Below are positions 1,612 through 22,195 of a DNA stretch of 24,510 bases, piece after piece. Source of the stretch: Planctomycetota bacterium. GTDB lineage: Bacteria; Planctomycetota; MHYJ01; JACPRB01. The position numbers were made by a program, and so were the translations under genes. The stretch is taken from contig DATHFI010000186.1 of NCBI GenBank assembly GCA_035490275.1, forward strand, positions 1-24,510. The letters run 5' to 3'. The notes below the pieces were generated by a model. The model was not told the DNA's origin. It worked only from the letters and a program-made list of their open reading frames with translations, and searched no databases. The number at the start of each line of letters is the position of its first letter. The first letter of the stretch is position 1.

Positions 1612-1768
1612 TCAGTTTCCAGATTCCAGATCCCGGTTTTCGGAAGTTTCCAGCTTCCAGCGCCGTAGCCGGGATTCATACGGATTGCACTTGGATGCGC
1701 TCTTCGCCTCCGGCTTGCGACTCGAAACTTCAGGGACTGGAATCTGGGATCAGGAATCTGGTAACTGA
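1612..1768. repeat. 157-bp element with 23-bp imperfect terminal inverted repeats built from CCAGATT-type heptamers
   Basis: Left arm 1612-1634 TCAGTTTCCAGATTCCAGATCCC versus the reverse complement of 1746-1768 TCAGTTACCAGATTCCTGATCCC (21/23 identical). Confidence 0.8.
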
Positions 1769-1787
1769 GCCACCACCCCCTAATAGC

Positions 1788-2282
1788 ATGAGGTCCCTGG
1801 CGCTCCTCGCGGTTCTCCTGTCGGTCGCCTCCTGCCAGACCCCCTCCGCGCCCGTCGGCGGCTCTTCAGCGCCACTCGCGATGACGCTCCGTTATTCCGT
1901 CAAGAAGTCGGCTCCCGGCGCGGCCGCGGCGGCCACCCCGGCGCACTTTGTCGTCGAGGCCTCGCTCCTCTCGAAAGGAGCCGCGCCTCAAACCCAGACC
2001 CTGGTCATCTACGATTCTAAGTGGGCCACCATGAAGGTCGGCGAGGTGCTCCAAGCGGTGAAGGACATAGAGCCCACTCCGGATGGCGAGGATGCCGTGC
2101 CGGTGGAAGTCGACATTTTCACGGGCACCCTGTTCGCATTCCGGTGCCGCGAGGCGAAGGATGGCAGGATCGAAACCAACGTCAGGGTCTATGAGGTCAG
2201 GGACGGCCGCCTGCGGGGCCGCTTCTCTTCCAACGACACCCTGGGCAGCGGCGAATCCAAGGAACTTCCCCTCATGCCTTGA
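1788..2282 (+). CDS. Lipoprotein, 164 aa, with weak resemblance to part of the secretin beta-domain
   Basis: ATG at 1788 within ORF 1227..2282. MRSLALLAVLLSVASC is a signal peptide II with lipobox VASC. The upstream part of the listed ORF is antisense-like or repeat-derived. Confidence 0.75.
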   Translation: MRSLALLAVLLSVASCQTPSAPVGGSSAPLAMTLRYSVKKSAPGAAAAATPAHFVVEASLLSKGAAPQTQTLVIYDSKWATMKVGEVLQAVKDIEPTPDGEDAVPVEVDIFTGTLFAFRCREAKDGRIETNVRVYEVRDGRLRGRFSSNDTLGSGESKELPLMP

Positions 2283-2354
2283 GAGACAGCACCTCCTTCC
2301 AAAGACTCTATAAGATCTTAAGACTAATCATCTCCGTCGTAAGAGTCTTTGAGT

Positions 2355-2409
2355 TGTGGATGGATTGTTGATAATCACAGTAACACACTCATTTTCAGAC
2401 ACTTACACA
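2355..2409. promoter_or_regulatory. Cluster of DnaA-box-like sites with IHF-like sites between them
   Basis: Against TTWTNCACA: rc CCATCCACA 2355-2363 (7/9), rc TTATCAACA 2366-2374 (8/9), ATAATCACA 2371-2379 (7/9), ACTTACACA 2401-2409 (7/9). Back-to-back WATCAAN4TTR-like sites at 2381-2393 (-) and 2393-2405 (+), 2 mismatches each. Confidence 0.6.
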
Positions 2410-2541
2410 AAACACCCATCGTTTAATCCTCTGTAAGATTTAGAGAAACACCCGAGAAAGGAGTGTTGGTCTTTTGGGGAGGATCCGGGGAGACTCGCGA
2501 GCGACCTCTTGGGATGTGAAGAGGGGGTAAACTTCCCGGAA

Positions 2542-2561
2542 AGTCCCACAGAACTTCCACA
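2542..2561 (+). promoter_or_regulatory. Tandem DnaA-box-like pair next to the dnaA stop
   Basis: AGTCCCACA 2542-2550 (6/9) and ACTTCCACA 2553-2561 (7/9), same orientation, 11-bp period. Confidence 0.5.
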
Positions 2562-2568
2562 GGCCGGT

Positions 2569-3945
2569 TTACAGTTCGGAGGCCCCCTTGAGGAGCCGGC
2601 GCAGGGAGTCGACCTCGCCCCGTAGAACCTCGTCGCTCTCCAGCCCGCGCTGGACGCGCTTCAACCCGTAGACGACCGTCGAGTGATCCTTCCCGCCGAA
2701 GAACGAGCCGATCTCGGCGAGCGAGTGGCTCGTCATCTCCTTGCACAGGAACATCGCGACCTGGCGCGCCTTCGAGATCGACTTGGTCCAGGTCCGCGTG
2801 CGGAGATCGGTGACCTTCTTGCCGTAGTACCGGGCGACGAACTCCTGGATCCGGGGGATGCCGATGGGCGGCGCCCCGCCCGATCCGATATCTTTCAGGG
2901 CTTCGTGCCCGAGGGCGAGATCGACGGTGCGCCCGGACAGGGTGGCGTACGCGATGAGCTTGTTCACCGCGCCCTCGAGTTCGCGGATGTTCGTGTCCAC
3001 CGCCGACGCGACGAAGGAGAGGACGTCCTCGGGAATCTCCCGCTGCTTCAGCTCCGCCTTCCGGCGCAGGATCGCCACCCGCATTTCGAACGTCGGGGGG
3101 TCGACGCGCGCCTCGAAGCCCGCGAGGAACCGCGAGACGAGCTGCTCCTTGAGCGTGCGGATCTCCTTCGGCCCGGAATCGCTCGAGAGGACGATCCTCC
3201 GCTGGGCCATGTGGAGCGCGTTGAACGTGTGGAAAAACTCCTCCTGGCTGGAGTCCTTGCCCGCGAGGAAGTGGACGTCGTCGATGACGAGCGCGTCGGC
3301 GCCCCGCATGCGGCGGCGGAAATCCTCGATGCGCCCCTTCTGGAGCGCGCCGATGTACTCGTTCACGAAATGCTCGCACGACATGTAAAGGATGCGCGCG
3401 TACGGATTGCGCGCGAGCACCGCGTGGCAGATCGCTTGGAGGAGATGGGTCTTGCCCAAGCCGACGCCGCCGTGGACGAAGAACGGGTTGTAGACGTTGC
3501 CGGCCCCCTCGGCGACCGAGAGCGCGGCCGCGTGGGCGACGCGGTTGGTCGGCCCGGCGACGAAGGTGTCGAACGTGTAATTCGGGTTCAGGACCAGGTC
3601 GCCGCTGGCCACCGGGGCGGGGGGCGGCGGGACGGCGCGGGCCGGGGGCCGGGGCGCGGGCGGGGGGGGTGCGAAGACCGCCATCGCCTCCGCGGAATCG
3701 CTGATGCGGAAGGCGAGCCCGGGCGCGCGGCCGAAGACCTGGCGGAACGCCTCCTCGAGCGGGCGGCGGATCTCGCGTTCGAGCCAGTCGCGGTAGAAGG
3801 CGTTCGGAACCGGGACCTCGAACGAATTCTCGGCGACCTCCTCGATCGCGAGGTTGCGGCACCACGTCTGGAAGATGGCCGGCGGCACCGCCTGCTCGAG
3901 GCGCGTGAGGATCGACTCGCGGGTCTCAGGGGCGAGGGCGGTCAT
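2569..3945 (-). CDS. dnaA: Chromosomal replication initiator protein DnaA (458 aa)
   Basis: Domain I (FQTW...VPNAFYRDWLE), LNPNYTFDTFV, Walker A GGVGLGKTHLL, Walker B LVIDDVH, LVSRF, RELEGA, domain IV SLAEIGSFFGGKDHSTV. Start placed at ATG 3945, which overlaps the FHA gene stop (ATGA). Confidence 0.97.
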   Translation of the reverse strand: MTALAPETRESILTRLEQAVPPAIFQTWCRNLAIEEVAENSFEVPVPNAFYRDWLEREIRRPLEEAFRQVFGRAPGLAFRISDSAEAMAVFAPPPPAPRPPARAVPPPPAPVASGDLVLNPNYTFDTFVAGPTNRVAHAAALSVAEGAGNVYNPFFVHGGVGLGKTHLLQAICHAVLARNPYARILYMSCEHFVNEYIGALQKGRIEDFRRRMRGADALVIDDVHFLAGKDSSQEEFFHTFNALHMAQRRIVLSSDSGPKEIRTLKEQLVSRFLAGFEARVDPPTFEMRVAILRRKAELKQREIPEDVLSFVASAVDTNIRELEGAVNKLIAYATLSGRTVDLALGHEALKDIGSGGAPPIGIPRIQEFVARYYGKKVTDLRTRTWTKSISKARQVAMFLCKEMTSHSLAEIGSFFGGKDHSTVVYGLKRVQRGLESDEVLRGEVDSLRRLLKGASEL

Positions 3946-4466: not shown

Positions 4467-4530
4467 GCGGAAAGCTCCGATCCAAGGCGGGGTGGGGGGT
4501 AGGCAGGATGTCCGCGTCGGTCGAATCGTC

Positions 4531-4539
4531 TATGGAAAA
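4531..4539 (-). promoter_or_regulatory. DnaA-box-like site in the FHA-dnaA 5' leader
   Basis: rc TTTTCCATA is 8/9 to TTWTNCACA. A similar rc TTTTCCATG (7/9) lies at 4675-4683. Confidence 0.4.
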
Positions 4540-4627
4540 GTCTTTTGGACCGGTGCGCGCGCGGACGATGCTCCCGTATCTCTCCGTCCGACTCCCCCGA
4601 ACCCCGGCACCCTCTCCGTCCGGGGCC

Positions 4628-4655: not shown

Positions 4656-4677
4656 CCGTTTTTGTCGGGCGCTCCAT

Positions 4678-4705: not shown

Positions 4706-4879
4706 CATGAAGAATGGTCCGCCTTCGCGCGGACAGCATCGGAAATGGGCCGACGTTTTTCCGGGGCGGAAGCCCCGGCGACGCCGGGACTGGCGGGATC
4801 GGGCCCTCCCCCGTATTCTTTTCCTGCGCCATGGAACCAAGCTCGAAGCGCATCTGCGGCGGGGAGCTGGGAGCGGGCC

Positions 4880-4914
4880 GCTGACTGCTGAGCGCTGACT
4901 GCTGATCGCTGAAC
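4880..4914 (+). repeat. Tandem heptamer array (GCTGANN)x5
   Basis: GCTGACT GCTGAGC GCTGACT GCTGATC GCTGAAC, immediately before the GGAGG RBS of the sigma gene. Confidence 0.9.
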
Positions 4915-4930
4915 TAATGGAGGCCTTGGG

Positions 4931-5518
4931 TTGTCCCAATTCCCAGAACCCCGGGAGGCGCCCGACGCCGCCGCCGAGGAGGCCCTCGTCCGACGGGCCC
5001 AGGCCGGCGACCGCGACGCCTTCCGATCGCTCTATCAAAAGTACCAGGACCGCGTCTTCGCGACGGCGTACCGCATCGCGGGCGACCGCGAGACGGCCGC
5101 CGACCTGACCCAGGAGGTCTTCGTCAAGATCTTCGAGGAGCTCCCCGGGTTCCGGTTCGGCAGCCGGTTCTCCACGTGGCTCTACCGCGTCGCGGCGAAC
5201 CACGCCATCAACAAGGCTTCCGAGACGGCCCGGCACGCCCGGCTCAACGAGCGGATCGCGCGCGAGCGCCCCGCCGCGGCGCCGGCGGACCCGCCCTCCC
5301 GCGACCGGTTCGCGGGCGAGCGCCTCCAGGCCGCCCTCGCCGCGCTCAGCGTCAAGCTGCGCGCCGTCACGGTCCTGCGGTACCTCGAGGGATTGTCGTA
5401 CGAGGAAATCGCCGAGACCCTGGAGCTGTCCATCGGGACCGTGAAGTCCCGGCTCTTCCTGGCCCACGCGACGCTCCGGGAGCTGATGGACGACGATGTG
5501 AAGGAAGGTGACCGATGA
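4931..5518 (+). CDS. rpoE: ECF RNA polymerase sigma factor (sigma-70 family, RpoE-like)
   Basis: Region 2 (GDRDAFRSLY...DLTQEVFVKIF...FSTWLYRVAAN) and region 4 (LRYLEGLSYEEIAETLELSIGTVKSRLFLA). TTG start with GGAGG 7 nt upstream. Confidence 0.93.
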   Translation: MSQFPEPREAPDAAAEEALVRRAQAGDRDAFRSLYQKYQDRVFATAYRIAGDRETAADLTQEVFVKIFEELPGFRFGSRFSTWLYRVAANHAINKASETARHARLNERIARERPAAAPADPPSRDRFAGERLQAALAALSVKLRAVTVLRYLEGLSYEEIAETLELSIGTVKSRLFLAHATLRELMDDDVKEGDR

Positions 5519-5979
5519 ACGCGACCTGCGCGATTTTCCGCGAGTCGCTCCTCGACTATGTCGACGAGGCGCTTCACCCCGCCGTGCGCGAGGTGGCCCG
5601 AGCCCACGAGCGCTCCTGCGCGGACTGCGCCGGCCTCGTCCGGAGCGTCCGCGAACAACGCGCGCTCCTGTCGTCGCTCCCCCGCCCCGCCGCGCCCGGG
5701 AATCTCGGCGCGCGCATCGAACGCGCCCTCGCGAATTCCCGGCGCGCCGCCTTCCGGCCCCGGCGCTGGACGGCATGGGGGGCGGCCGCCGCGGCCGCGG
5801 TGCTCGTCGCGATCGGCCTCATGGCCGGCGCCTCACGGCTCCGCGCCCCCGAGCGCTCCATCACGGTGGTCGACGTGGAGCTTCCCGACCGCGGCACGCT
5901 CCTCGGCCGCTTCGCTCCGAGCTACGAAAATCCCTCGGCGAGCCTGCTTGACCCGCTCGTCTCCAGCGAGAATCCCTAG
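5515..5979 (+). CDS. Zinc-binding (ZAS/zf-HC2) transmembrane anti-sigma factor
   Basis: Hx3Cx2C motif HERSCADC, an N-terminal Cys, TM helix WTAWGAAAAAAVLVAIGLMAGA, and an ATGA overlap with the sigma gene. Confidence 0.88.
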   Translation: MNATCAIFRESLLDYVDEALHPAVREVARAHERSCADCAGLVRSVREQRALLSSLPRPAAPGNLGARIERALANSRRAAFRPRRWTAWGAAAAAAVLVAIGLMAGASRLRAPERSITVVDVELPDRGTLLGRFAPSYENPSASLLDPLVSSENP

Positions 5980-5985
5980 GGAATC

Positions 5986-6999
5986 ATGATGTCGCGGAGA
6001 ATGGTCCGGAACGTCCTGGCGACCGCCGGGATCGCCCTCCTTGCCGCCCCCGCGGCCTTCGCGGTCTTGGCGGAGGCCTCCCACGGCCGCGACGCCGCCT
6101 TCCTGGAGGAAGTGCGCGCCGCGCAGGACCGCGTCCGTTTCCAGGGACGAAAGGTGGTCGCCTTTCATGACGGGACGGCCATCCTCGACGTCCGCGCGGA
6201 TCGCCCGGGGCGCCTCCACGTCGAAACCGTCCAGCGTCCCGCGGGCCGCCGCGGGTTCGGCTGGCCGGGCCGCGGGCCTCGGGGCCGCTTCGCCGACCCG
6301 GCCCTCATCGCCGAAAACTACCGGCTCGACCCCCGCGGTCGGGAGACTCTCGCGGGCCGCGAGGCGGACCGGTTCGCGCTCCGCCCCCGTCGCCCGGGTC
6401 GCGCGGCTTATGAATTCGCCGTCGACCGCTCGACCCGATTCCTCCTCGCCTTCCGCGCCGTGGCGGCCGACGGCACGACCCTCTATGACTCCCGATTCGA
6501 ATCCATCGAATTCAATCCCGCCGCCCGGCCGGAGGCGAGCGCGCCCAAGCCGTCCACGCCCACCGGTCCCAAACAAGAGAGGCCCCGGCGCGTGATCCGG
6601 CAACGCGTCACCGAGGAGGAGCTCCGCGGCGCCATGCCCTTCACGGTGTGGAGGCCCGCCTGGGTGCCCGAAGGCTTTCGGCTCCGAGCGCTCGAGCGGT
6701 ACGTCATCCGCGATCTCGGCGAGGCGGTGATGGGAACATGGTCCGACGGGATGGCCTCGATCTTCGTGGTCCAGGCGGATGCGTCCAACCCGGCGTGGGA
6801 ACTCTTCCGCGGCCTCTACCTCGGCCTTCCGGAAGCCCCCGCGGCGGCCGCCGGAACCGACATCGTGGCCCACCGGATGCGCCACCCCGGCGGCGCGGTC
6901 CTCAACCTCACCCTCGAGGGGACGGAACTCCTGATCGGCGGGCAGATCGATCCTTCGGAATTGGAAGAGATGGCGAAACGCTTGGTTAAAATCGACTGA
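5986..6999 (+). CDS. RseB/MucB-like periplasmic negative regulator (LolA-fold N-domain plus C-domain)
   Basis: Signal peptide (AFA cleavage). ENYRL...GRETLAGREADRFALRP...YEFAVDRSTRFLL and VWRPAWVPEGFRL are typical of MucB/RseB. Located third in a sigma/anti-sigma operon. Confidence 0.75.
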   Translation: MMSRRMVRNVLATAGIALLAAPAAFAVLAEASHGRDAAFLEEVRAAQDRVRFQGRKVVAFHDGTAILDVRADRPGRLHVETVQRPAGRRGFGWPGRGPRGRFADPALIAENYRLDPRGRETLAGREADRFALRPRRPGRAAYEFAVDRSTRFLLAFRAVAADGTTLYDSRFESIEFNPAARPEASAPKPSTPTGPKQERPRRVIRQRVTEEELRGAMPFTVWRPAWVPEGFRLRALERYVIRDLGEAVMGTWSDGMASIFVVQADASNPAWELFRGLYLGLPEAPAAAAGTDIVAHRMRHPGGAVLNLTLEGTELLIGGQIDPSELEEMAKRLVKID

Positions 7000-7016: not shown

Positions 7017-8039
7017 ATGACGACGATCATGGCTCTCGTGGCGACGGCGGTGCTGGCTACCTATCAGGATCCCCCGACTCCGGCTCCGGCCCCGGCCCCG
7101 CAGGAGGGCGAAGGCCGGCGGACCCGGCGCATCGAAATGTTCCAGGACCAGAATCCCGAGCGCCAGGCGGAGCAGCGCGCCAAGTTCCTCAAGGACCAGC
7201 TCGGCCTCACCGACGAGCAGGTCCAGAAGGCGACCGAGATCTACAAGCAGTCGCGCGAAGCGGAGGCGAAGCTCGAGAAGGAGCGCCAGGGGAAGCTCCG
7301 CGAGATCCTCACCGATGACCAGAAGAAGAAGTACGACGACCTCATCGAGAACCCCGGCCGCTTCACCGCCCGGCCCGGCGCCGGAGGCGCGTTCGGCGGC
7401 TTCGACCGGATGATGGAGGGCTGGGCCGACACGCTCAAGAAGGAGCTCGGACTCAGCGACGAGGCCTTCGAGAAGGTGAAGGGGATCGTCGAGGACTTTC
7501 GCAAGAAGACCCAGGACCGCATCGAGAAACTCCGCCAGGACGGCTTCCAGGGGATGAACTGGCAGGAGGAGATGCAGAAGTTCCAGGACGGGCTCAAGGA
7601 TATCGGGGAGAAGATCAAGGAACACCTCACCCCCGAGCAGAAGGAGAAATTCGACAAGCTCGTCGAGCGGCTCCAGCCCGGCCGCTTCGGACCCCAGGGC
7701 GGCCCCCAGCGCCCGTCTCCGGAAGAGCGCGCGGGCCGCGTCGTCGAGGCCCTGAAGATCGAGGACTCGAAGGACCAGGCCGCCGTCAAGACGTCCGTTG
7801 TAAAGGTCCTCGAGGCCGAGCAGGCCCTGCGGGATTACGACCGGGAGTCGCGCGGCAAAGTCGAGGAGATCAACCGGGACAGCTCGCTGAGCGACGAGCA
7901 GGTCGCCGCCAAGCTGAACGAGATCCGCTCGGCGCGCCTGGAGAAGGACAAGGCCCACAAGTCGGCCCAGAAGGATCTGCGGGAAGTGGTCTCGGCGCGG
8001 CAGGAAGTGGAGCTGATCCGCCAAGGGATCTTCCGGTAA
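7017..8039 (+). CDS. Exported all-helical protein with repeated LTxxQ motifs (Spy/CpxP-like, three tandem modules)
   Basis: Signal peptide, then LGLTDEQ, ILTDDQ, LGLSDE, HLTPEQ, LSDEQ and VSARQ motifs. The modules are separated by G/P-rich linkers. GGAGG RBS. Confidence 0.65.
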   Translation: MTTIMALVATAVLATYQDPPTPAPAPAPQEGEGRRTRRIEMFQDQNPERQAEQRAKFLKDQLGLTDEQVQKATEIYKQSREAEAKLEKERQGKLREILTDDQKKKYDDLIENPGRFTARPGAGGAFGGFDRMMEGWADTLKKELGLSDEAFEKVKGIVEDFRKKTQDRIEKLRQDGFQGMNWQEEMQKFQDGLKDIGEKIKEHLTPEQKEKFDKLVERLQPGRFGPQGGPQRPSPEERAGRVVEALKIEDSKDQAAVKTSVVKVLEAEQALRDYDRESRGKVEEINRDSSLSDEQVAAKLNEIRSARLEKDKAHKSAQKDLREVVSARQEVELIRQGIFR

Positions 8040-8045
8040 ACAAGC

Positions 8046-8124
8046 GGCTTCCGGCTCGCGCTTCCGGACTTCAGCCTCGGGCTGATTGCTGAACGCCGAG
8101 AGCTGAAAGCCGTGCGAGCCGAAG
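8046..8124. repeat. Composite heptamer / inverted-repeat element
   Basis: GCTGATT GCTGAAC GCCGAGA GCTGAAA GCCGTGC (8081-8115). Hairpin TCAGCC-TCG-GGCTGA (8071-8085). GGCTCGC (8053-8059) pairs with GCGAGCC (8114-8120). Confidence 0.75.
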
Positions 8125-8133
8125 GCGAGCATT

Positions 8134-9822
8134 ATGCGTGAGCCCATCGGCCGGATCATGGTCCGGCACGGCGTCGTCACCGACGCCCAGATCGAGGAGG
8201 CGCTCCGCCTCCGCGAGAAGGGCGAACGGCTGGGGGAGGCGCTCCGCCGCCTCGGCCACGCGGGCGAGGACCACGTCGTCGCCGCCCTCGCGGAGCAGCT
8301 CCGTCTGCCCGTCGTCGAGCTCGCCGGCCGGGAAATCCCCTCCGAGGTCCTCGATCAGGTCGGGGTCAAGACGGTCTTCCGTCGGAAGGTTCTCCCTTTC
8401 GAGCGGGAGAACGGGACGCTGCGCGTGGCGCTGGCCGATCCGCTCGATCTCGATGTTCTCGACGAGCTGCGGCTCCTCGTGAAGGGGGAGGTCGTGCCGG
8501 TCCTCGCGCGGCCGTCGGAGATCGACCGGCTCATCCGGCGCTACTACGGCGTGGCGGCGGACACGGTCGACGGGATGGTCGAGGCGGCCCGGGAGGAGCT
8601 GACCGTCCTCAGGGAGGGCGAGGCCCGCGAAGATGAGGCGACGGCGCTCGCGGAAGACGCCGGCCTCATCAAGTTCGTCAACCAGCTCTTCACCGAGGGG
8701 GTGCGCGACCGCGCGAGCGACATCCACATCGAGCCGCTCGAGGAGGGACTGCGCATCCGGTACCGGATCGACGGCATCCTCCACCAGATCCCCGTGCCGC
8801 CGCAGATCGGAAGGTTCACCTCCGCGATCATCTCGCGCCTGAAGATCATGTCGGGGCTGAACATCGCCGAGAAGCGGCTCCCGCAGGACGGCCGCATCAT
8901 GCTCAAGGCGCTCGGCCACGAGATCGACGTCCGCGTCTCCATCATCCCGAACGTCTGGGGCGAGGGGGTCTGCCTGCGCCTCCTCGATCGCCGGAACATC
9001 CAACTCACCCTCGAGGATCTCGGGATGCCGCCGAAGGTCCTGGAGCAGTTCCGCCTGCTCATCGGCCAGCCCCACGGGATCCTGCTCGTGACGGGCCCGA
9101 CGGGCAGCGGCAAGACGACGACCCTCTACGCCGCGCTCCAGAAGATCAACGCGGTCGAGGACAAGATCATCACCATCGAGGATCCGGTCGAGTACCACCT
9201 CGGCGGGATCAAGCAGATCCAGGTGAACGTCCGGACGGGCCTGACCTTCGCGGGCGGCCTGAGGGCGATCCTGCGCCACGACCCCGACATCATCATGGTG
9301 GGCGAGATCCGCGACCTCGAGACGGCCGAGATCGCCATCCAGAGCGCCCTCACGGGCCACCTCGTCTTCTCGACGCTCCACACGAACGACGCGCCGAGCG
9401 CGCTCACGCGGCTCATCGACATGGGCCTGGAGCCCTTCCTGGTCTCGTCCACGATCGAGGGGTTGATGGCGCAGCGCCTCGTCCGCCGCGTCTGCCTGAT
9501 GTGCCGGGAGGAAGTGCGCCCGAAGGTGGCCGAATTCGAGACCGGCGCCCTGCCCGAGGACATCCGCACGTTCTGGCGCGGGAAGGGATGCCCCGAGTGC
9601 CGGGGGACCGGCTACCGCGGGCGGCAGGGCGTCTTCGAGCTCGTCGTCCTCAACGACAGCATCCGCGAGCTGGTCCTGAAGCACGCGAGCGCCGGGGCGG
9701 TGAAGCAGGCCTGCATCGCGGCGGGGATGAGGACTCTCCGCGACGACGGCTGGGACCGCGTGAGAACCGGAGTCACCACGCCCGAGGAGGTGATCCGGAT
9801 TACCAAGGCCGACAAGTTTTGA
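8134..9822 (+). CDS. gspE: Type II secretion ATPase GspE (PilB/GspE family) with MshEN-like N-terminus
   Basis: Walker A GPTGSGKTTT, TIEDPVEY, Walker B DIIMVGEIRD, His box GHLVFSTLHTN, tetra-Cys CLMC...CPEC, DIHIEP, AEKRLPQDG. Confidence 0.95.
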   Translation: MREPIGRIMVRHGVVTDAQIEEALRLREKGERLGEALRRLGHAGEDHVVAALAEQLRLPVVELAGREIPSEVLDQVGVKTVFRRKVLPFERENGTLRVALADPLDLDVLDELRLLVKGEVVPVLARPSEIDRLIRRYYGVAADTVDGMVEAAREELTVLREGEAREDEATALAEDAGLIKFVNQLFTEGVRDRASDIHIEPLEEGLRIRYRIDGILHQIPVPPQIGRFTSAIISRLKIMSGLNIAEKRLPQDGRIMLKALGHEIDVRVSIIPNVWGEGVCLRLLDRRNIQLTLEDLGMPPKVLEQFRLLIGQPHGILLVTGPTGSGKTTTLYAALQKINAVEDKIITIEDPVEYHLGGIKQIQVNVRTGLTFAGGLRAILRHDPDIIMVGEIRDLETAEIAIQSALTGHLVFSTLHTNDAPSALTRLIDMGLEPFLVSSTIEGLMAQRLVRRVCLMCREEVRPKVAEFETGALPEDIRTFWRGKGCPECRGTGYRGRQGVFELVVLNDSIRELVLKHASAGAVKQACIAAGMRTLRDDGWDRVRTGVTTPEEVIRITKADKF

Positions 9823-9826: not shown

Positions 9827-9885
9827 GATGACCGATGACGGATGACGCCGATTCCCCGGTCATCTGTCATCGGACATCTGTCATC
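9827..9885. repeat. Inverted heptamer array (GATGACN)x3 ... (NGTCATC)x4, hairpin-forming
   Basis: GATGACC GATGACG GATGACG (9827-9847), a 10-nt spacer, then GGTCATC TGTCATC GGACATC TGTCATC (9858-9885). Confidence 0.9.
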
Positions 9886-9911
9886 ATCGACATGACCTCC
9901 TGAGGCTTGGT

Positions 9912-11141
9912 ATGCCGCTATTTGCCTATAAAGCCAAAAAGGACGACGGCTCGACCGTCGAGGGGATGCTCCAGGCGGAGACGGAGCGGTCCGCCCTCGA
10001 CGCGCTCGGCCGCCAGGGGGTCTTTCCGCTCCAGATCGCCGAGTCCGGGGGCGCGGCCGCGGGGCCCTCTCAGGCCCGCGGGATTCGCCGGGTGCGGCGG
10101 CGCATCAAGCCGGAGGACGTCGGCCTCTTCACGCAGCAGCTCGGCGACCTCCTGAAGGCCGGGGTCCCGATCAACCGGGCCCTCGGGACGCTCGAGAAGC
10201 AGACGTCGAACGCCTCCTTCTCGGAGCTCATCGCCGACCTCGGGAAGCAAGTCTCGGCGGGCAAGCCGCTCCACGAGACGCTGGGCCGGTACCCCCGGTA
10301 TTTTCCGCCGCTCTACACGAGCATGGTGAAGGCGGGCGAGACGGGCGGGTTCCTCGAGGACGTCCTCCACCGGCTCGCGTCGTTCATCGACAAGGATTCG
10401 GACCTGCGGAGCCGGATCAAGGCGGCGCTCGCCTATCCCGTCCTGCTGATCATCCTCGGGACGGCGGCCATCGCCTTCCTCATGGTCTTCTTCATCCCCC
10501 GGTTCAGCGAGATCTTCGCCAAGCTCGGCTCGCAGCTGCCATGGTCCACGCGGGTCGTCATGTCGGTCAGCTATTTTTTCCGCGACTACTGGATGATCCC
10601 CGTCGCCCTGGTGGTCCTCGTCCCCGTCCTCTGGACGCGGCTCACGGCGACCTTCACGGGGCGCCAGACGGTGGACCGGCTGAAGCTGGGCGCGCCGGTC
10701 TACGGGGATATCACGAGGAAGAGCGCCATCGCGCGATTCACCCGGACGCTCGGGACGCTCCTGAAGAGCGGAGTTCCGATCCTGTCAGGGCTGGCGATCG
10801 CGAAGGAGGCCATGGCGAACTCGGTGCTGATGCGGGACATCGACGAGGCCGCCGCGGGCGTTAAACAGGGACGGAGCCTGGCGGAGATCATGCGCAAGTC
10901 GCGGGGTTTTCCCGCCATGGTCGTGGACATGATCGCCGTGGGCGAGGAATCGGGGAATCTCGACGAGGTGCTCGTGAACCTGGCCGATTCGTACGACAAT
11001 CAGGTCGACCGGTCGGTCAAGGTCTTCATTTCCCTTTTCGAGCCGGTGCTGCTCGTCATCATGGCCTCGATCGTCGGCTTCGTGGTGATTTCGATGCTGC
11101 TCCCCGTGTTCACGCTGTCGTCCATGATCGGAAAAAAGTGA
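9912..11141 (+). CDS. gspF: Type II secretion inner-membrane platform protein GspF
   Basis: MPLFAYKA N-terminus, two T2SSF repeats (AGETGGFL / VGEESGNL), AALAYP, three TM segments, FEPVLL...LLPVF. Confidence 0.95.
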   Translation: MPLFAYKAKKDDGSTVEGMLQAETERSALDALGRQGVFPLQIAESGGAAAGPSQARGIRRVRRRIKPEDVGLFTQQLGDLLKAGVPINRALGTLEKQTSNASFSELIADLGKQVSAGKPLHETLGRYPRYFPPLYTSMVKAGETGGFLEDVLHRLASFIDKDSDLRSRIKAALAYPVLLIILGTAAIAFLMVFFIPRFSEIFAKLGSQLPWSTRVVMSVSYFFRDYWMIPVALVVLVPVLWTRLTATFTGRQTVDRLKLGAPVYGDITRKSAIARFTRTLGTLLKSGVPILSGLAIAKEAMANSVLMRDIDEAAAGVKQGRSLAEIMRKSRGFPAMVVDMIAVGEESGNLDEVLVNLADSYDNQVDRSVKVFISLFEPVLLVIMASIVGFVVISMLLPVFTLSSMIGKK

Positions 11142-12095: not shown

Positions 12096-12523
12096 CCCTC
12101 CTTCGCCCCGTTTCTGCCATGAAGTTTTCGCCGGGGCTTCGGAAGGCGCCCTTCGGGCGTCCCGCCGGCTTTACTCTCATCGAAGTTCTTGTCGCCCTCG
12201 TCGTCGTCACCACGGCGTTGACCGTCGTGGCCCAGGGATTCCTGACCGGAGGCCGGGCCTCGGTCGCCTCCCAGCACGAAACGGTGGCCGTCTTCCTGGC
12301 GGAATCCAAGATGGCGGAGATCGACCTGGGAATCGTCTCCACCCAGTCTTCCACCTCGGGAACCTTCGAACCCGAACAGCCCGACTTTGCCTGGAAGACC
12401 GAGGTGGAGACGACGACCGTGACCGGACTGACGAAGCTCACCCTGACGGTGACGTGGAAAGAGCGCGAGGAGGAGCGGACGTTCGCCCTGACGCGGCTCA
12501 TCATGGAGCGGACAACCCAATGA
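12092..12523 (+). CDS. gspI: Minor pseudopilin GspI-like
   Basis: AG|FTLIEVLVALVVV, A..LAESKMAEI, F.W...VE. GTGA overlap with gspH; alternative ATG at 12119. Confidence 0.8.
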   Translation: MTLLRPVSAMKFSPGLRKAPFGRPAGFTLIEVLVALVVVTTALTVVAQGFLTGGRASVASQHETVAVFLAESKMAEIDLGIVSTQSSTSGTFEPEQPDFAWKTEVETTTVTGLTKLTLTVTWKEREEERTFALTRLIMERTTQ

Positions 12524-13284
12524 GCCGCTTCCAGCATCCAGCTTCCGGCTTCCCGCCTCGGGCGGGCCCGCTCGCAGCTCGCAGCTCGAAGCTCGAAGCC
12601 ACCCCCGGGATCACCAGGGGATTCACGCTCATTGAGCTTCTGGTTGCTCTCTCCATCTTTTTGATCGTGGTGAGCGCGAGCTATGCGCTCTTCGACGGCG
12701 GGAGAAACCTCGCCGCGCGGGGGGAATACCACGCCCATCGGTTCCAGGCGGCGCGCGCCGCCCTTCGGGCCCTCGAGGCCGACCTCAAGGGGGTCTTCCA
12801 GGGCGGGCCCTACGACGCGGGCTTCATCGGAAAGCACGGAGGCACCGAGGAGCTTCCCCTGGACACGCTCGAAGCGGTCGCCTTCAACAACCAGCCGAAA
12901 CTCGCCACGCCGGCCACCACGACGCTTTCCGTGCCGCCGCCGAAGGAATTCGACATCTCGCGCGTGGCCTACTCGATCGACGACCTCGACACCACGAAAG
13001 AAAAGGGCCTCGTCCGCCAGCGGACCAAGCTCGTCCCCGAAGTCGTCACGGTCAAAGACCCCGAGGAAGGACTCGAGGAGATCTCGCCCGACGTCGTCGG
13101 ACTGCGCCTGCGGTACTACGACGGATCCGACTGGCTCGACACGTGGGACTCAACGACCTCCCGCACCCTGCCGAAGGCGATCGAGGCGACGGTCCACGTG
13201 AAGTCCGTCTTCCGCGAGAAGGAGGAGGTCGAGGCGTTCTCCACGAAGATTTTCCTTCCGGTGGCGGCCTCGACGTCGCGGTGA
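12520..13284 (+). CDS. gspJ: Minor pseudopilin GspJ-like with an unusually long (34 aa) leader
   Basis: RG|FTLIELLVALSIF, LEADL, RVAYS...LVR, LRLRYYDGSDWLDTWDS...LPKAIE. ATGA overlap with gspI. Confidence 0.82.
   Translation: MSRFQHPASGFPPRAGPLAARSSKLEATPGITRGFTLIELLVALSIFLIVVSASYALFDGGRNLAARGEYHAHRFQAARAALRALEADLKGVFQGGPYDAGFIGKHGGTEELPLDTLEAVAFNNQPKLATPATTTLSVPPPKEFDISRVAYSIDDLDTTKEKGLVRQRTKLVPEVVTVKDPEEGLEEISPDVVGLRLRYYDGSDWLDTWDSTTSRTLPKAIEATVHVKSVFREKEEVEAFSTKIFLPVAASTSR
12527..12597 (+). repeat. Heptamer arrays flanking a hairpin, inside the gspJ leader
   Basis: GCTTCCA GCATCCA GCTTCCG GCTTCCC (12527-12554), hairpin CCCGCC-TCG-GGCGGG (12552-12566), GCTCGCA GCTCGCA GCTCGAA GCTCGAA (12570-12597). 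Confidence 0.85.
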
Positions 13285-17346: not shown

Positions 17347-17360
17347 TAGTAGGGAAGCTT

Positions 17361-17399
17361 TGACCGCAGGCGGTCATCCGTCATCGGTCATCTGTCATC
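17361..17399. repeat. Hairpin plus (NGTCATC)x4 heptamer array
   Basis: TGACCGC-AG-GCGGTCA (17361-17376), then GGTCATC CGTCATC GGTCATC TGTCATC (17372-17399). Same family as 9827-9885. Confidence 0.9.
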
Positions 17400-17470
17400 G
17401 CTTGTAGATCGAACCCGGCATGGGTCCTGTTTGTCTTAGTAGAATCACAGAGCTAGGTTTGGAGATTGCC

Positions 17471-20224
17471 ATGCATCGCTGGACTGCGGCCGGAACCCTC
17501 CTCGCGGCGTTTCTGATGGTCGGCCTCCCCGGCTGGGCGCAGGACCCGCCCGCGGGCGAGAAGCGCCTCGACTTCAAGTTCCGCGACGCCTCGGTGGACA
17601 AGGTCCTCGAGTACGTCTGCAGGCAGATGAAATGGACGCTCACCTACAGCGAGAAGGCCAAGCCCGAGGGTACGATCACGGCGTATAACGAATCGCTCGT
17701 CCCCGAGGGCAAGGTCGTCGACTTCCTGAACACCGCGCTCCAAAAGTCGAAGGTCCAGGTCTTCCTGTTCGAGGAGGTCCTCAAGGTCGTGACCGAGGAG
17801 GAGGCGAAGAAAGGGAAGTACAACATCGACTTCGGCGACGATCCGACGAAGATTCCGATCAACGACACGATGCGGACCTGGATCTATCCGCTCCGGAACG
17901 TGAACATCGACGAGATCGAGAAGAAGCTCAAGGAGATGATCGAGGAGGACGGCGTCAAGGCCGTCTTCAGCCCCTACTCGAACAGCGTCGTCATGACGGG
18001 CAAAGGCGCGAGCATCTACCGGGTGGCCCGAATCCTCAAGATCGTGGACGTGCAGGCCACGGAGCGGCTCGAAGTGCGCCTCTTCAAGCTCCGCCACGCG
18101 GACGCTCAGGAGACGGCCAAGCTCCTGAACGACGTCTTCAAGAAGCCGGAGGCCTCCGCCGGCGGCGGCGGAAACCCCTGGGCGCAGATGGCCCAGATGA
18201 TGGGCGGCGGCGGCCAGAGGACCCAGGGCCCCCAGCCCCGTTCCCTAGCGAGCGAGATGTTCCGCCTCACCGCCGACGTCCGCACGAACGCCGTGGTGGC
18301 GACCGCGACCAAGGAAAACCTGGACATGGTCGACGGCATCATCAAGCAGCTCGACGGCGAGGCCGCCGAGGCGGTCCGCCTGAAGCTCTACCCCCTGCGG
18401 TACGCGGACGCCAAGGAAGTCGCCGCCGTCATCACGAGGGTCTTCGAGGACGAGGCGGCCCAGTCCCGGCAGGCGAACCGGAACCAGCGCAACCTCCCGA
18501 TCTGGATGGGCGGATCGCCGCAGATCGGGCAGGATCCGGCCGGGGCCACGCGCGAGGTGCGCGCCGTCTCGGACGTCCGCAGCAACTCCGTCGTCGTCGC
18601 GGCCAACGAGGGCAACCTGAGGACGGTGGACGACCTGATCGCCAATCTCGACCGCCAGCTCACGGACATCCTCCGGATCAAGATCTACGAACTGAAGAAC
18701 GCGGACCCCACCGGCATGGTGAACATGCTGCGCGAGATGTTCCGGCCCCAGATCACGGCGACCCAGAACGCCGGCCGGCCCCAGCAGCAGCAGCAGCAGC
18801 AGGGCAACCAGAATCCCTTCATGTTCGGCAACCGGACCTCGACCACCGGGGGGAGCAGCGCCCTCGCGCCGAGCATGGAGATGGAAATCACCGGCGACAC
18901 CCGCACGAGGTCGGTCATCGTCAAGGCGAGCGAGGATTACATCGCCGTCATCGACGAGATTGTCTCCCAGCTCGACCGGAACCCGACCGAGACGATGAGC
19001 ACGTACGTCATCGATCTCCGCAACGCGAAAGCCGCCGACGTGGCCCAGGTCCTTCAGCAGCTGCTCCGCGGCGGCAGCACCTCGACGACGGGAAATCGCA
19101 CCAACACGAACACCAACTCGACCAACCGGAACGCGAACACGAACAGCCGCCCGGCCACCCGCCAGAGCGGCGGCGCGAGCACGCGCAACCTCGGTCCGCT
19201 CTCGGACCAGGACCCGACCCCTCCGGCGGTCCAGCAGCCGCCCCCGCCCTCCCAGGAGACCCCGGACCAGGAGGAGGCGCGCCGCGCCATTGAGGGCCAG
19301 GCCGACGTGCAGGCGGACGCCGCGACGAACTCGCTCGTGGTCCGCACCTCGCCGCGCAACCTCGAGGCGATCCGGAGCATCGTCCAGAATCTCGACCGGG
19401 CCCGCCCGCAGGTCCTCATCAAGGTGCTCATCGCCGAGGTCACGCTCGACAAGGACACCCGCTTCGGCGTCGAGGGGTTCTGGGAGAACAAGTTCCGCGT
19501 GAGCGGCGCCCCGATCACCCAGCGCCACGGCACGGACTTCGACCTGCCCACGCAGGGGCTGGCGACGCTCCTCACGGGCAAGGAGATGAAGGCCGCCCTC
19601 AACGCCTTCGCCGATGAAGGCAAGCTCAAGGTCCTGGCGACGCCGCGGATCCTCGTCCTCGACAACGAGACCGCGAACATCAACGTCGGCAAGGAAGTGC
19701 CGCGCATCACGAACTCGACGATCAACGAGCTCGGGAACACGGTGAACACGGTCCAGTACGAGTCGGTCGGCATCCTCCTCGAGGTGACGCCCCACATCAA
19801 CTTCGACGGGCTCGTGACGATGGACGTCCACCCCGAGATCTCGGACATCGCGCCCGCCTCCGAGGCGGTCGTCATCACCCCGGGCGCGACCTCGCCGACC
19901 TTCAACGTCAACTACGCGAACACGACGGTCGCCGCGCGGACCGGCCAGACGGTGGTCATCGGCGGCCTGATCCGCGAGAGCGAGTCGAACACCGTCTCCA
20001 AGGTCCCGATCCTGGGCGACATCCCGATCCTCGGCTTCCTCTTCTCCAACACGATCAAGCAGACGGTGAAGCGCGAGCTGATGATCTTCCTGACGCCGCT
20101 CGTCTCCTACACGTCCGCCCAGCTGGAGGAGATCACCGAGCTCGAGAAGGCGAAGCTGAAGCTCATCGACGACGGCGACGTGGAGGACGGCGGCGACCGG
20201 TGGCTACAGAGGCTCCGGAACTAG
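17471..20224 (+). CDS. gspD: Type II secretion secretin GspD (917 aa) with five N1-type repeats
   Basis: Signal peptide, N0 LDFKFRDASVDKVL, repeated Y.L..A.A...D.RTNS.VV...LD modules, secretin domain PQVLIKVLIAEV, LATPRILVLDNETANINVG, VGILLEVTPHI, VVIGGLI, KVPILGDIPILGFLF, ELMIFLTP. ATG 17471 follows GGAG. Confidence 0.95.
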   Translation: MHRWTAAGTLLAAFLMVGLPGWAQDPPAGEKRLDFKFRDASVDKVLEYVCRQMKWTLTYSEKAKPEGTITAYNESLVPEGKVVDFLNTALQKSKVQVFLFEEVLKVVTEEEAKKGKYNIDFGDDPTKIPINDTMRTWIYPLRNVNIDEIEKKLKEMIEEDGVKAVFSPYSNSVVMTGKGASIYRVARILKIVDVQATERLEVRLFKLRHADAQETAKLLNDVFKKPEASAGGGGNPWAQMAQMMGGGGQRTQGPQPRSLASEMFRLTADVRTNAVVATATKENLDMVDGIIKQLDGEAAEAVRLKLYPLRYADAKEVAAVITRVFEDEAAQSRQANRNQRNLPIWMGGSPQIGQDPAGATREVRAVSDVRSNSVVVAANEGNLRTVDDLIANLDRQLTDILRIKIYELKNADPTGMVNMLREMFRPQITATQNAGRPQQQQQQQGNQNPFMFGNRTSTTGGSSALAPSMEMEITGDTRTRSVIVKASEDYIAVIDEIVSQLDRNPTETMSTYVIDLRNAKAADVAQVLQQLLRGGSTSTTGNRTNTNTNSTNRNANTNSRPATRQSGGASTRNLGPLSDQDPTPPAVQQPPPPSQETPDQEEARRAIEGQADVQADAATNSLVVRTSPRNLEAIRSIVQNLDRARPQVLIKVLIAEVTLDKDTRFGVEGFWENKFRVSGAPITQRHGTDFDLPTQGLATLLTGKEMKAALNAFADEGKLKVLATPRILVLDNETANINVGKEVPRITNSTINELGNTVNTVQYESVGILLEVTPHINFDGLVTMDVHPEISDIAPASEAVVITPGATSPTFNVNYANTTVAARTGQTVVIGGLIRESESNTVSKVPILGDIPILGFLFSNTIKQTVKRELMIFLTPLVSYTSAQLEEITELEKAKLKLIDDGDVEDGGDRWLQRLRN
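18782..18802 (+). repeat. (CAG)7 in-frame repeat encoding poly-Gln in a secretin loop
   Basis: Seven perfect CAG units read directly from the sequence. Confidence 0.9.
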
Positions 20225-20228
20225 GTCC

Positions 20229-21053
20229 ATGAAGCGATTCTTCCTTTGCGGTCCGCTCCTCCTCCTGGCCGCCTGCTCCTCGCGCCCGATCGAGGAGGTC
20301 AACGCCGAGCAGTCCACCTTCCTCCGGGAGGAGGGGGATGCCGCGCTCAAGGAGGGGGATCACGGCCGGGCCATCGACATCTATACCCGCGCCCTCGAGC
20401 TGAACCCCGGGGCCGCCGACACGTGGTACCGGCGCGGCAACGCCTACGCGAAACGTCCCGCGGGGTCCGACGAGCCCAACCGCCGGCGCGAGTGGCTGCG
20501 GCAGGCCGAGGCGGATTACTCCACGGCGATCCAGCTCAACCCCGCCCACCGCGACGCCCTCTTCAACCGCGCCATGATCCGCCTGAAGATGAAGCGGTAT
20601 ATCGACGCCGCCAAGGACCTCGTCGAGTGCACCCGCGTCGATCCGCGCGACGCCGAGCCGGAGTTCGTCCTGGGACACATCTACCTCCACCGGCTCGAGG
20701 ACCAGCAGATCATGGCGATGGAGCACTACGACAAGTACGTCGCGCTCGGCGGGGACGACCCCGAGGCGGTGAAGCTGGTCCGCGAATGGCGCGAGCTGAA
20801 GAAGTCGATGGCCGCCCCCAACGGCGGGCCCGCTCCGAAGGGGCCCACGGCGGAGGACGAGGAGGCGGCGAAACAGCTCCACGCGAGGGTGCTGACGCTC
20901 ATCCCGAAGGGCGAGGAGCAGCGGCCGGAAGTCGCCCGGCTGCTCCTGGAACTGACGACGAAATACGCCCAGACGAAGTACGTGAAGGACAACGAGAAGG
21001 GGTTGAAGGCGCTCCTGAACGCCTTCCGTCCCCGCGATCCCGAGAAGAAGTGA
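20229..21053 (+). CDS. TPR-repeat lipoprotein (candidate secretin pilotin)
   Basis: MKRFFLCGPLLLLAAC lipobox. TPR motifs AIDIYTRALELNP, AEADYSTAIQLNP, AAKDLVECTRVDP. Starts 4 nt after gspD. Confidence 0.8.
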   Translation: MKRFFLCGPLLLLAACSSRPIEEVNAEQSTFLREEGDAALKEGDHGRAIDIYTRALELNPGAADTWYRRGNAYAKRPAGSDEPNRRREWLRQAEADYSTAIQLNPAHRDALFNRAMIRLKMKRYIDAAKDLVECTRVDPRDAEPEFVLGHIYLHRLEDQQIMAMEHYDKYVALGGDDPEAVKLVREWRELKKSMAAPNGGPAPKGPTAEDEEAAKQLHARVLTLIPKGEEQRPEVARLLLELTTKYAQTKYVKDNEKGLKALLNAFRPRDPEKK

Positions 21054-22195
21054 GCTCCAAGCTCCAAGCTTCAAGCCTCAAGCCAGTAGTCGCTTTCGCG
21101 ATTCTCACCCTCCTTATTCCCCAGGATGCCGAATTGGATGCGGCGCTCAAGGCCGACCGCGCCCGCATCGCCGCCAAAAAACCCCTCACCCGCGATGAAA
21201 CCAAGGGCTACCGCGCCGTCGCCCCCCGGCTCGCCCCCGACAAGGTCCGATTCCGGATCAAGGCGATCCCGCTTTCGTTCACCGGCGCGCCGGCCTCCCG
21301 CGGCGACCTCCGCGCGGCGCTTCTCGATCCCCTGGCCGCCTACTATCGCGGGCAGTCCGGCGGGGTTTTCGAGCTGGAAGCCGCGCTTCTCGAGGCGCGC
21401 GCGGCGGACGTCCCGCGATCCGAACTGGCCGCCGCGGCCGCGGGCTCGGCCGCCGAGCAGAAGATCGTCGGGCGGGTCCTGAAAGCGGAAGACCTCGAGG
21501 GGGCGGACGCGTTTATCCTGATCGCGGCGGGCGGGATCGGATCGCCGAAAACCGGGCTCTGGCCCCACGAATCGACGATGCGCGTCGGCGGAAAGACGGT
21601 GGACTACGTGCTCATGCCCGAGACGGGCGACCACCGGTGGTTCGGCATCGCGGCCCACGAGACGGGCCACCTGCTCAAGCTCGAGGACAAGTACGGCGAC
21701 CGCGAGGCGAAGGTCGGGCGGTGGTGCCTGATGGGGACGGGCTACCTCGACGCCACGAAGGAAGACCCGCGGCCCGGGCCCCTCTGCGCGGTCTGCCGCG
21801 AGGTGCTCGGGTGGATCCCGCCGCTCGTCCACGACCCCGCGTCCGAGGGGGCCTACAGCCTCGCCCCGGGGCTCGCCGCCGTGAAGGTGCCGGTGAACAA
21901 GGACGGGAAAGAGGCGGTCGTCCTCGAGTTCCGGGGCCGGGCGCTCCTCGTGTGGCACACGGGCGGCGGGCGGCCGATCGAGCTCGCCGCCATCCTGCCC
22001 ACCGAGGCGCGCGACCGCCTCACCCCGTGGTCCGATCCCCCCTTCCGCGCCCGCACCCTGGGCGCGTCGAACGCCTGGATCACCGACGTGCGGATCCAGG
22101 AGGGGAAGGCGTGGTTCCGGCTCGGCCCCTCCGCGGAGCTTACCCCGCTCGAGGACCTGCGCAGGCAGCGGGTCGGCCGCGAGCTGGGGAAGTGA
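21050..22195 (+). CDS. Exported M6-family (immune inhibitor A-like) zinc metalloprotease, 381 aa
   Basis: HETGHLLKLEDKY zinc motif (HExxHxxxxxD), GRWCLMGTG Met-turn, PLC..C..LGW, WPH motif. GTG 21050 overlaps the TPR gene stop (GTGA) and is followed by a signal-peptide-like segment. Confidence 0.7.
   Translation: MSSKLQASSLKPVVAFAILTLLIPQDAELDAALKADRARIAAKKPLTRDETKGYRAVAPRLAPDKVRFRIKAIPLSFTGAPASRGDLRAALLDPLAAYYRGQSGGVFELEAALLEARAADVPRSELAAAAAGSAAEQKIVGRVLKAEDLEGADAFILIAAGGIGSPKTGLWPHESTMRVGGKTVDYVLMPETGDHRWFGIAAHETGHLLKLEDKYGDREAKVGRWCLMGTGYLDATKEDPRPGPLCAVCREVLGWIPPLVHDPASEGAYSLAPGLAAVKVPVNKDGKEAVVLEFRGRALLVWHTGGGRPIELAAILPTEARDRLTPWSDPPFRARTLGASNAWITDVRIQEGKAWFRLGPSAELTPLEDLRRQRVGRELGK
21054..21081 (+). 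repeat. Heptamer array (GCTCCAA-type)x4 in the protease signal-peptide n-region
   Basis: GCTCCAA GCTCCAA GCTTCAA GCCTCAA. Confidence 0.85.

Follow-up and report, generated by a model that had tools for sequence, protein, structure and literature searches.

Heptamer arrays at gene junctions of a planctomycete type II secretion locus are local members of a genome-wide set and probably derive from PF05635-bearing hairpin elements

We examined the heptamer arrays that lie between the genes of a 24.5-kb Planctomycetota contig (24,510 nt; contig C186, analyzed whole and hereafter called the window), which carries a type II secretion system (T2SS) operon. The source genome (G000) is a metagenome-assembled genome of 2.56 Mb in 534 contigs, with 67% G+C and 73% completeness. 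An earlier note made from the window had described seven arrays with a 7-bp period at gene junctions and had likened them to the short tandemly repeated repetitive (STRR) heptamers of cyanobacteria. All seven were present, six being called by Tandem Repeats Finder (TRF) and that at 8081–8115 recognized by direct reading of the sequence, the two means of detection used in the window. They lay outside mature-protein coding sequence, as claimed, the T2SS genes E, F, G–M, C, and D having been confirmed with Pfam. On balance, the evidence tips toward these arrays being local members of genome-wide STRR or long simple sequence repeat (LSSR) arrays that form the arms of hairpin elements, the full form of which encloses a gene of the PF05635 family, here called an intervening-sequence protein (IVP) gene. 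The array loci of the window are as follows.

1602–1777: 176-nt copy of an element resembling a miniature inverted-repeat transposable element (MITE), with at least 14 full-length copies in the genome
1613–1631: period-7 array (TRF), with an inverted partner near 1735–1765
4878–4912: single array of CGCTGACTGCTGAG, 2.4 copies (GCTGANN), called by TRF at periods 7 and 14
8040–8133: spacer upstream of gspE, comprising a left arm, a short GC hairpin, and a right array
9827–9847 and 9857–9885: convergent pair, GATGACN ×3 and NGTCATC ×4 (TRF and sequence)
12527–12553 and 12570–12599: arrays of GCTTCCN ×4 and GCTCGNA ×4 around CGCCTCGGGCGGG (TRF)
17371–17400: single array of NGTCATC ×4 between the gspC stop codon (17346) and gspD (TRF)
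21053–21084: single array, AGCTCCA AGCTCCA AGCTTCA AGCCTCA (TRF)

A genome-wide periodicity scan showed that the excess of period 7 was specific and that the placement of the arrays was non-random. TRF returned 957 rows of period 7 for G000, along with 180 of period 6, 138 of period 8, and 255 of period 14, compared with 102, 57, 181, and 33 rows, respectively, for a third-order Markov genome of equal size. Periods 5, 8, 10, and 11 occurred at or below chance, and among the non-coding periods only 7 and its multiples exceeded the Markov genome. Merging yielded 1,024 period-7 arrays with a median of 4.1 units, and 901 of these were intergenic; for periods 6, 9, and 12, about 95% of the arrays were coding (coding DNA, 89.5% of G000, was delimited with our own codon-bias gene caller). 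The specific period-7 excess was confined to spacers. Because of the surplus over the Markov genome and this intergenic restriction, the outcome that the earlier note had named as speaking against it, namely a period 7 no commoner than others or a random placement, did not materialize. The arrays made up 10.2% of intergenic DNA and were present in 548 of the 1,376 spacers (40%) of at least 20 nt; spacers without arrays were short (median 27 nt). The suggestion that the arrays are a feature of the T2SS was not upheld, given this 40% and the fact that gspE and gspF abut in array-less relatives.

Convergent spacers had the highest density, with 5.8 arrays per kb, followed by co-directional spacers (4.0) and divergent spacers (2.0). 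When each array was placed at random within its own spacer as a null, 13% (co-directional) and 35% (convergent) were expected within 10 nt of a stop codon, and 29% and 59% were observed; in divergent spacers, arrays were depleted beside start codons relative to random placement. For each unit family, the strand relative to the upstream gene was nearly even.

The units fell into discrete families, in which a conserved core was combined with one free base. We counted 174 canonical units, the abundant families being CAGACNT, CCAGATC, GAATCNN, GATGACN, AGCTYSN, and CCCGTTN. Across dozens of dispersed arrays, a core of 5–6 bases was conserved at 91–99%, and one position was nearly free; the seventh base of GATGACN, for example, was A at a frequency of 0.20, C at 0.33, G at 0.42, and T at 0.05. 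Neighboring units shared the free base at a rate of 0.32, against 0.33 by chance, and because of this lack of correlation, recent single-unit slippage would not give the observed pattern. An inverted partner occurred within 90 nt of 290 of the 1,024 arrays (28%), compared with 22 (2%) in the control. Within each family, the polarity of the arms was fixed and was the same in gene-bearing and gene-less copies: GATGAC...GTCATC pairs occurred 18:0, CAGAC...GTCTG pairs 18:0, and pairs of six other families 3:0 to 5:0, while the 8:15 ratio of GAATC pairs resolved into two subfamilies. The left arm was richer in G than in C in 31% of the 115 inverted pairs. At these 115 simple pairs, flanking direct repeats were as frequent as in a shifted control, so that no target-site duplication was detected, and the centers of GATGAC pairs were mutually unrelated and 1–67 nt long. 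One GATGAC pair with an identical 67-nt center was found at C183:3–140 and, in the opposite orientation, at C530:415–540, which points to either a genuine duplication of the element or an overlap of contig ends. At C492:8171–8223, an array consisted of GGGAATC/GGGGATC units, the heptamer that is expanded in Xanthomonas.

Relatives obtained by a GspF search were soil and groundwater Planctomycetota metagenome-assembled genomes. Four of the genomes belong to the genus (G000–G003, 72–78% complete each), and G010, a further family member, was 91% complete. The density of period-7 rows was 3.4–10 per 10 kb in the three other genus genomes and 3.0 in G010, and was near background in most other members of the family and class. 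The abundance of the families was species-specific: three-unit GATGACN matches numbered 160 in G000, 75 in G001, 3 in G002, 51 in G003, and 0 in G010, and GTTGACN matches 3, 26, 9, 64, and 7, respectively, with 0–1 matches for reversed-pattern controls.

The comparison between strains that the earlier note had proposed showed that relatives keep arrays at common junctions, often with another unit, or lack them. We compared 107 orthologous spacers of G000 with 279 kb of G002, the coding DNA of which is about 90% identical. Arrays were present in neither genome at 60 spacers, in both at 29, and in one genome only at 9 + 9, so that 29 of the 47 array-bearing spacers were shared; at these 29, the unit was identical in 9, differed by one base in 5, and differed by two or more bases in 15. 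Thus, presence, absence, and replacement of the unit all occurred at orthologous junctions of genomes that are about 90% identical. In alignments, tightly coupled genes were separated by a whole pair in one genome and by none in the other; at C2:6450, the unit was changed in every copy of both arms (GGAATCA versus CGCATCA). At C514:11886, the arms had 2 versus 4 units in relatives, and at C234, a single GGATGCC in G002 corresponded to three copies in G000, an expansion in place. The gspE/gspF junction varied in the same manner. The window carries GATGACN there, G002 (95% GspF identity) GTTGACN, and G003 GT[CT]GACC; a GCTGACT-type array occupies the junction in a metagenome relative of about 94% identity, and TAGCTCG, GAATCGA, or CCAAGNG pairs occur there in more distant relatives. 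In three family members, the two genes overlap as TGATG, leaving no spacer.

The link to a protein family came from the PF05635 (23S rRNA intervening sequence/Avd-like) genes. PF05635 is a functionally uncharacterized family (10.1101/2024.02.27.582315) related to Avd of diversity-generating retroelements (PMC10053308), and its genes have been seen inserted within cas operons (PMC3936711); no paper tying it to heptamer repeats was found in the literature searched. G000 contained nine matches, on contigs C331, C75, C81, C185, C378, C350, C428, and C340, corresponding to 3.5 per Mb versus 0–0.55 in most family members. Nearly all of these genes were bracketed by heptamer arrays: by eye, eight of the nine were flanked by convergent arrays situated within about 30–110 nt of the gene on each side, with one arm unit per gene (GGAATCA, AGCCNTG, CCAGATC, CCCGTTN, GGAATCT, CCGTTTN, CAGACTT, and GATTCTN), and an automatic criterion scored seven of the nine as bracketed, compared with 15 of 1,588 other genes (0.9%). 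The same bracketing by convergent arrays was observed at 18–19 of 20 IVP loci sampled from 16 relatives with 32–72% G+C. One G003 locus had GTTGACN arms, and three of the 20 had arms with a period of 8 (L103 of G019, L106 of G005, and L117 of G009), sometimes with multiple nested arrays. The statement that the period is always 7 therefore held within the window but is not universal, since these relatives' arms of period 8 have an equal architecture.

Gene-bearing and gene-less copies had common polarity and common sub-terminal motifs, GAAGYTTCSAGC lying beside CCAGATC and CCCGTT arms and AGTTNTCAG beside CAGAC arms. The IVP paralogues were 21–64% identical to one another, and protein similarity tracked arm similarity: IVPs with GGAATCA, GGAATCT, and GGCATCA arms shared 49–59% identity, and those with CCAGATC and CCCGTTC arms shared 64%. 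The nine IVP genes had a common leader (GGCACACC..GGAGG..ATGCAGGAYTT). They were scored weakly or missed by the codon-bias gene caller, which suggests that their composition is atypical.

A full cassette would accordingly read as an array (U)n, a short leader, a PF05635 gene of approximately 120 codons encoding an 'intervening-sequence' or Avd-like four-helix-bundle protein (~120 aa), and an inverted array (rcU)n. No PF05635 match was found in the window, and its arrays are therefore at most gene-less derivatives. They would comprise convergent pairs (at the E/F junction, upstream of gspE, and at the I/J junction), solo arms (4878, 17371, and 21053), and the MITE-like derivative at 1602–1777. 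Such elements would spread, or be rewritten, by a mechanism that uses neither a RAYT transposase nor a reverse transcriptase, and would survive only where they are harmless; in compact spacers, such places would be those directly behind a stop codon but before the ribosome-binding site that follows. Arrays may punctuate operon junctions because an insertion is tolerated only within the few bases of that interval.

The earlier note had listed 1612–1768 as an array; the region is heptamer-periodic, as stated, but it belongs to a copy of the MITE-like element and is not a simple array. G000 contains at least 14 full-length copies with 85–95% identity in both orientations. The inverted ends, of roughly 45 nt, are built of heptamers (GTTTCCA GATTCCA GATCCC ... 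GGGATCAGGAATCTGG), and the center is conserved and non-palindromic. The window copy is short by exactly one heptamer. It is flanked by a 7-bp target duplication, CCCTAAT, at 1595–1601 and 1778–1784, the first copy of which holds the TAA stop codon of a gene encoding a STAS-domain protein; the two genes were therefore approximately 7 nt apart before the insertion. Duplications of 7–8 bp occur at several copies (CCCTAAT, GGCAGTTA, CCAGAAAC, and AGCTTCC). The inverted ends (GGTAGTGGGTCAGTTTC.../...GAAACTGAGCCACTACC), the target duplication, and the many gene-less copies are those of a MITE. Furthermore, the CCAGATC-type arms and a GAAGTYTCSAG motif match the IVP cassettes on C81 and C185.

Arrays in the window often stood head-to-head, as the earlier note had it, and two of the pairs were predicted to fold as strong hairpins. 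Upstream of gspE (8040–8133), the left arm, at about 8044–8072, is degenerate and of the GCTTCCG type, and the right array reads GCTGATT GCTGAAC GCCGAGA GCTGAAA at 8081–8115; the latter scores below the TRF threshold in the window, and its ortholog in G002 was called by TRF as a GCTGAAC array. The predicted RNA fold is a single long hairpin (−47.1 kcal/mol, z −3.59, with 0 of 200 shuffled sequences as stable). Related soil-metagenome contigs, which could be compared only over the parts of the window that they cover, have 24 unrelated bases in place of 8027–8133. The E/F pair sits between the gspE stop codon (9822) and the gspF start codon (9912), and the fold of this spacer reaches −38 kcal/mol (z −3.23); a GAGG 8–11 nt ahead of the gspF ATG lies outside the stem. 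An 89-nt spacer with its own GAGG (9886–9911) replaces the TGATG overlap of the array-less relatives. The array at 17371–17400 belongs to the family of the E/F pair (GATGACN) and lies on the opposite strand. The array at 4878–4912 lies 19 nt upstream of an extracytoplasmic function (ECF) sigma factor gene, and that at 21053–21084 begins inside the TGA stop codon of the gene following gspD. The 9-mer core GCCTCGGGC, which the earlier note had found in common between 8074–8082 and 12555–12563, is real, but it occurs 178 times in the genome and only three of these occurrences are near arrays; the sharing is therefore probably a coincidence, and we rejected the 9-mer as a functional center.

At the I/J junction, the arrays lie downstream of the gspI stop codon (12523) and upstream of the codons for the N-terminus of mature GspJ (G|FTLIE, 12619). 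No long hairpin was predicted for this pair (z +0.27), nor for the solo arrays, and in a metagenome relative the right arm is swapped for 31 other bases. The gspJ gene has no canonical start codon close to the prepilin cleavage site. An ATG at 12520 overlaps the gspI stop codon as ATGA, as in relatives, and is in frame through both arrays to the mature N-terminus, giving GspJ a leader of 33 residues, versus 5–7 in array-less relatives. The frame also stays open through the differing arrays of G001 and of the metagenome relative. Judging from these reading frames, the I/J arrays may be translated within the cleaved GspJ leader peptide.

Intervening sequences in rRNA are cut by RNase III. By analogy with those of 23S rRNA, the stem of about 25–30 bp that would form in the polycistronic mRNA when both arms are present could be cut by RNase III or could uncouple the translation of the neighboring genes. 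The stems might also shift the ratios of T2SS subunits. Such cutting or uncoupling would be a side effect rather than a device specific to the T2SS.

Several observations weigh against the interpretation of the window arrays as arms of IVP hairpin elements. Besides the lack of a PF05635 match in the window, no GATGAC-armed IVP gene was found when the 73%-complete assembly was searched by tblastn with 16 IVP proteins. Most arrays are solo, 72% having no detectable inverted partner. The simple pairs, which have no target duplications and have unrelated centers, are thus not ordinary copies derived from a master element. In two class-level relatives, IVP genes were numerous, yet few arrays occurred in a 20-kb sample. 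Expansion in situ by 7-nt steps also occurs, as for GGATGCC at C234, and IVP genes might instead invade the loops of pre-existing hairpins. The link could therefore run in either direction, gene-less pairs being deletion derivatives of cassettes or IVP genes being inserted into existing hairpin loops. The nearest cassette found for GATGACN was the GTTGACN-armed one in G003, and the GCTGAAN/GCTTYCN arms of the window resemble those of a cassette in G004.

A broader version, in which STRR and LSSR arrays in general are the cis elements of an unrecognized class of hairpin cassettes encoding PF05635 proteins, each paralogue recognizing its own arm, and in which gene-less pairs and solo arms are derivatives spread or rewritten in trans, is a tentative proposal that we regard as possible rather than probable. 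With such cis elements and cognate proteins, the species-specific families, the fixed polarity, and the core with a free base would be accounted for.

Of the other explanations, the one that survives best, although we consider it unlikely, is that the arrays are plain, neutral microsatellites produced by slippage with a 7-nt step, the inverted partners arising by intrastrand template switching and the association with IVP genes being incidental. A preferred 7-nt step of slippage has been proposed (Mrazek 2007, as cited in PMC4679880). Differences in steps of 7 between relatives at C514:11886 and C234, the single heptamer missing from the window copy of the MITE-like element, the exclusion of frame-breaking units from coding DNA, and the failure to find a transposase partner would all be expected under this explanation. 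It does not readily yield a variable base shared at only the chance rate next to a core conserved at 91–99% over 54 dispersed arrays, nor discrete, species-specific families with dozens of copies. The strictly fixed polarity of the pairs, the fact that tightly coupled genes have acquired or lost whole pairs between them, and the bracketing of 7–8 of nine IVP genes versus 0.9% of other genes also argue against it.

It is still less probable that the arrays are host regulatory sites, either tiled binding sites for proteins or RNA hairpins that set transcript ends or subunit ratios. Ribbon-helix-helix proteins tile repeats of 7–8 bp, and several features are consistent with such a role: the core is conserved next to a free spacer base, position is conserved while the sequence changes, and strong hairpins are predicted at two junctions. 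Heptamer repeats are reported in a preprint to affect the expression of recO/recF in Nostoc (10.1101/2022.06.06.494920). However, arrays are rarest in the divergent spacers that bear promoters, solo arrays show no fixed strand with respect to the upstream gene, and matching junctions are array-less in relatives with intact operons. Moreover, the core hexamers occur at the expected frequency outside arrays, and many regulators would have to be assumed for approximately 1,000 sites belonging to at least 10 families.

Some more specific purposes were rejected as well. The period of 7 does not serve to supply stop codons in three frames, as many units are stop-free on both strands and TGA-containing units are equally frequent in sense and antisense. 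The observed/expected ratio of the core hexamers outside arrays, 0.87–1.21, argues against restriction/modification or genome-wide selection on these hexamers, and a C-rich bias of the kind seen at Rho-utilization sites amounted to a weak skew (170 versus 118 near stop codons).

We assign a very low probability to templated addition, in which heptamers would be polymerized onto 3′ ends at breaks by a reverse transcriptase or an enzyme resembling telomerase, giving convergent arms with a poorly templated seventh base. The fixed convergent polarity, the lack of correlation of the variable base between units, and the relationship of IVP to Avd, the partner of the reverse transcriptase in diversity-generating retroelements (PMC10053308), are compatible with it, but the centers of 1–67 unrelated bases are left unexplained. 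The reverse transcriptase that the earlier note had suggested might accompany the arrays was not encountered: there was no PF00078 match in the five array-rich genomes (G000–G003 and the 91%-complete G010), although controls responded, and membership of the diversity-generating retroelements (Avd plus reverse transcriptase) was rejected on the same grounds. Least credible of all are repetitive extragenic palindromes or bacterial interspersed mosaic elements (REP/BIME) moved by a REP-associated (RAYT, Y1) transposase, because the arrays, extragenic, near stop codons, in both orientations, and often paired as they are, consist of tandem heptamers with no conserved 20–40-nt palindrome, and because the cognate gene (RAYT/TnpA, PF01797), which the earlier note had also put forward, had no match in the four genus genomes but was present in nine array-poor relatives and six control genomes.

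The remaining features of the window were identified with Pfam.

4931–6999: gene set for an ECF sigma factor, an anti-sigma factor, and an RseB-like protein
4931–5518: ECF sigma factor gene (Sigma70_r2/r4)
8134–9822: gspE
9912–11141: gspF
after gspF: T2SS genes in the order G, H, I, J, K, L, M, C, followed by gspD
17420–20224: gspD

The secretin GspD is long (934 aa) and contains five Secretin_N stretches, and gspD has low-complexity repeats of CAG and CACGAA type at 18782–18802 and 19099–19145. The GC content drops to 0.59 over 2001–3000 (region 2283–2568), adjoining a long minus-strand gene at 2569–3945. A scan of the window against Rfam gave no match at the gathering score, and a tRNA scan found none.

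In many bacterial genomes, to our knowledge, no long simple repeat is more strongly over-represented than the heptamer. G000 is an extreme case from a new phylum, with 10% of its spacer DNA in arrays of many families, and relatives at about 90% identity reveal how arrays change: units are replaced, whole pairs are gained or lost, and polarity stays fixed. The bracketing of PF05635 genes turns a descriptive puzzle into a testable one, through arm binding and cassette movement. The significance for the T2SS operon is modest: arrays stand between genes whose translation is coupled in relatives, and the region coding for the GspJ leader contains one pair.

The likeness to STRR heptamers was borne out: the arrays of G000 have a tandem 7-nt unit, are noncoding and stop-proximal, lie on either strand, and form convergent pairs. 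Because placement, strand neutrality, pairing, and positional conservation match, they belong to a known but unexplained kind of repeat. The GGGAATC/GGGGAYT repeats of Xanthomonas campestris, X. axonopodis, and Nostoc PCC 7120 (Rehm et al. 2015, PMC4692102) are, like those of G000, tandem and about 90% intergenic, lie nearer the upstream open reading frame, occur equally on both strands, and are rare between divergent genes; they form 70–75 convergent inverted pairs per genome, and sister species keep the junctions while length and sequence vary, as in G000. One Xanthomonas repeat adjoins the T2SS gene xpsF (PMC4692102). Unlike the single G-rich unit described there, G000 has at least 10 abundant families and 174 canonical units, most of which do not form G-quadruplexes, and it belongs to a different phylum; that paper does not mention the PF05635 link seen in G000. 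STRR, heptanucleotides of heterocystous cyanobacteria (Mazel 1990), and LSSR (Mrazek 2007), both as cited in PMC4679880 and PMC4692102, are likewise noncoding heptamers of patchy distribution among lineages and of unknown origin; in these citing accounts, neither the fixed polarity, the core with a free base, nor the associated gene found in G000 is reported. The TAACTGA repeats of marine Beggiatoaceae, cyanobacteria, and Bacteroidetes (MacGregor 2015, PMC4679880) are also intergenic, with 2–6 copies in scattered phyla, but consist of one unit, lie mostly just upstream of start codons, and are almost never inverted, whereas the arrays of G000 hug stop codons and are often inverted. General accounts of heptanucleotide LSSR and STRR (PMC4679880 and PMC6749651) and the heptanucleotide elements of Geobacter (PMC2700814) fit the same picture. 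As high-copy extragenic palindromes near stop codons, REP/BIME and MITEs resemble the arrays of G000, and the element at 1602–1777 is MITE-like in its inverted ends, 7–8-bp target duplications, and lack of a gene; they differ in that no RAYT was found and that the simple pairs have neither target duplications nor conserved interiors. Finally, although the elements of G000 lie between protein genes, have arms of tandem heptamers, and form stems that are predicted only, their cassettes resemble the intervening sequences of 23S rRNA, in which a stem of inverted arms encloses a small PF05635 gene and of which gene-less forms also exist.

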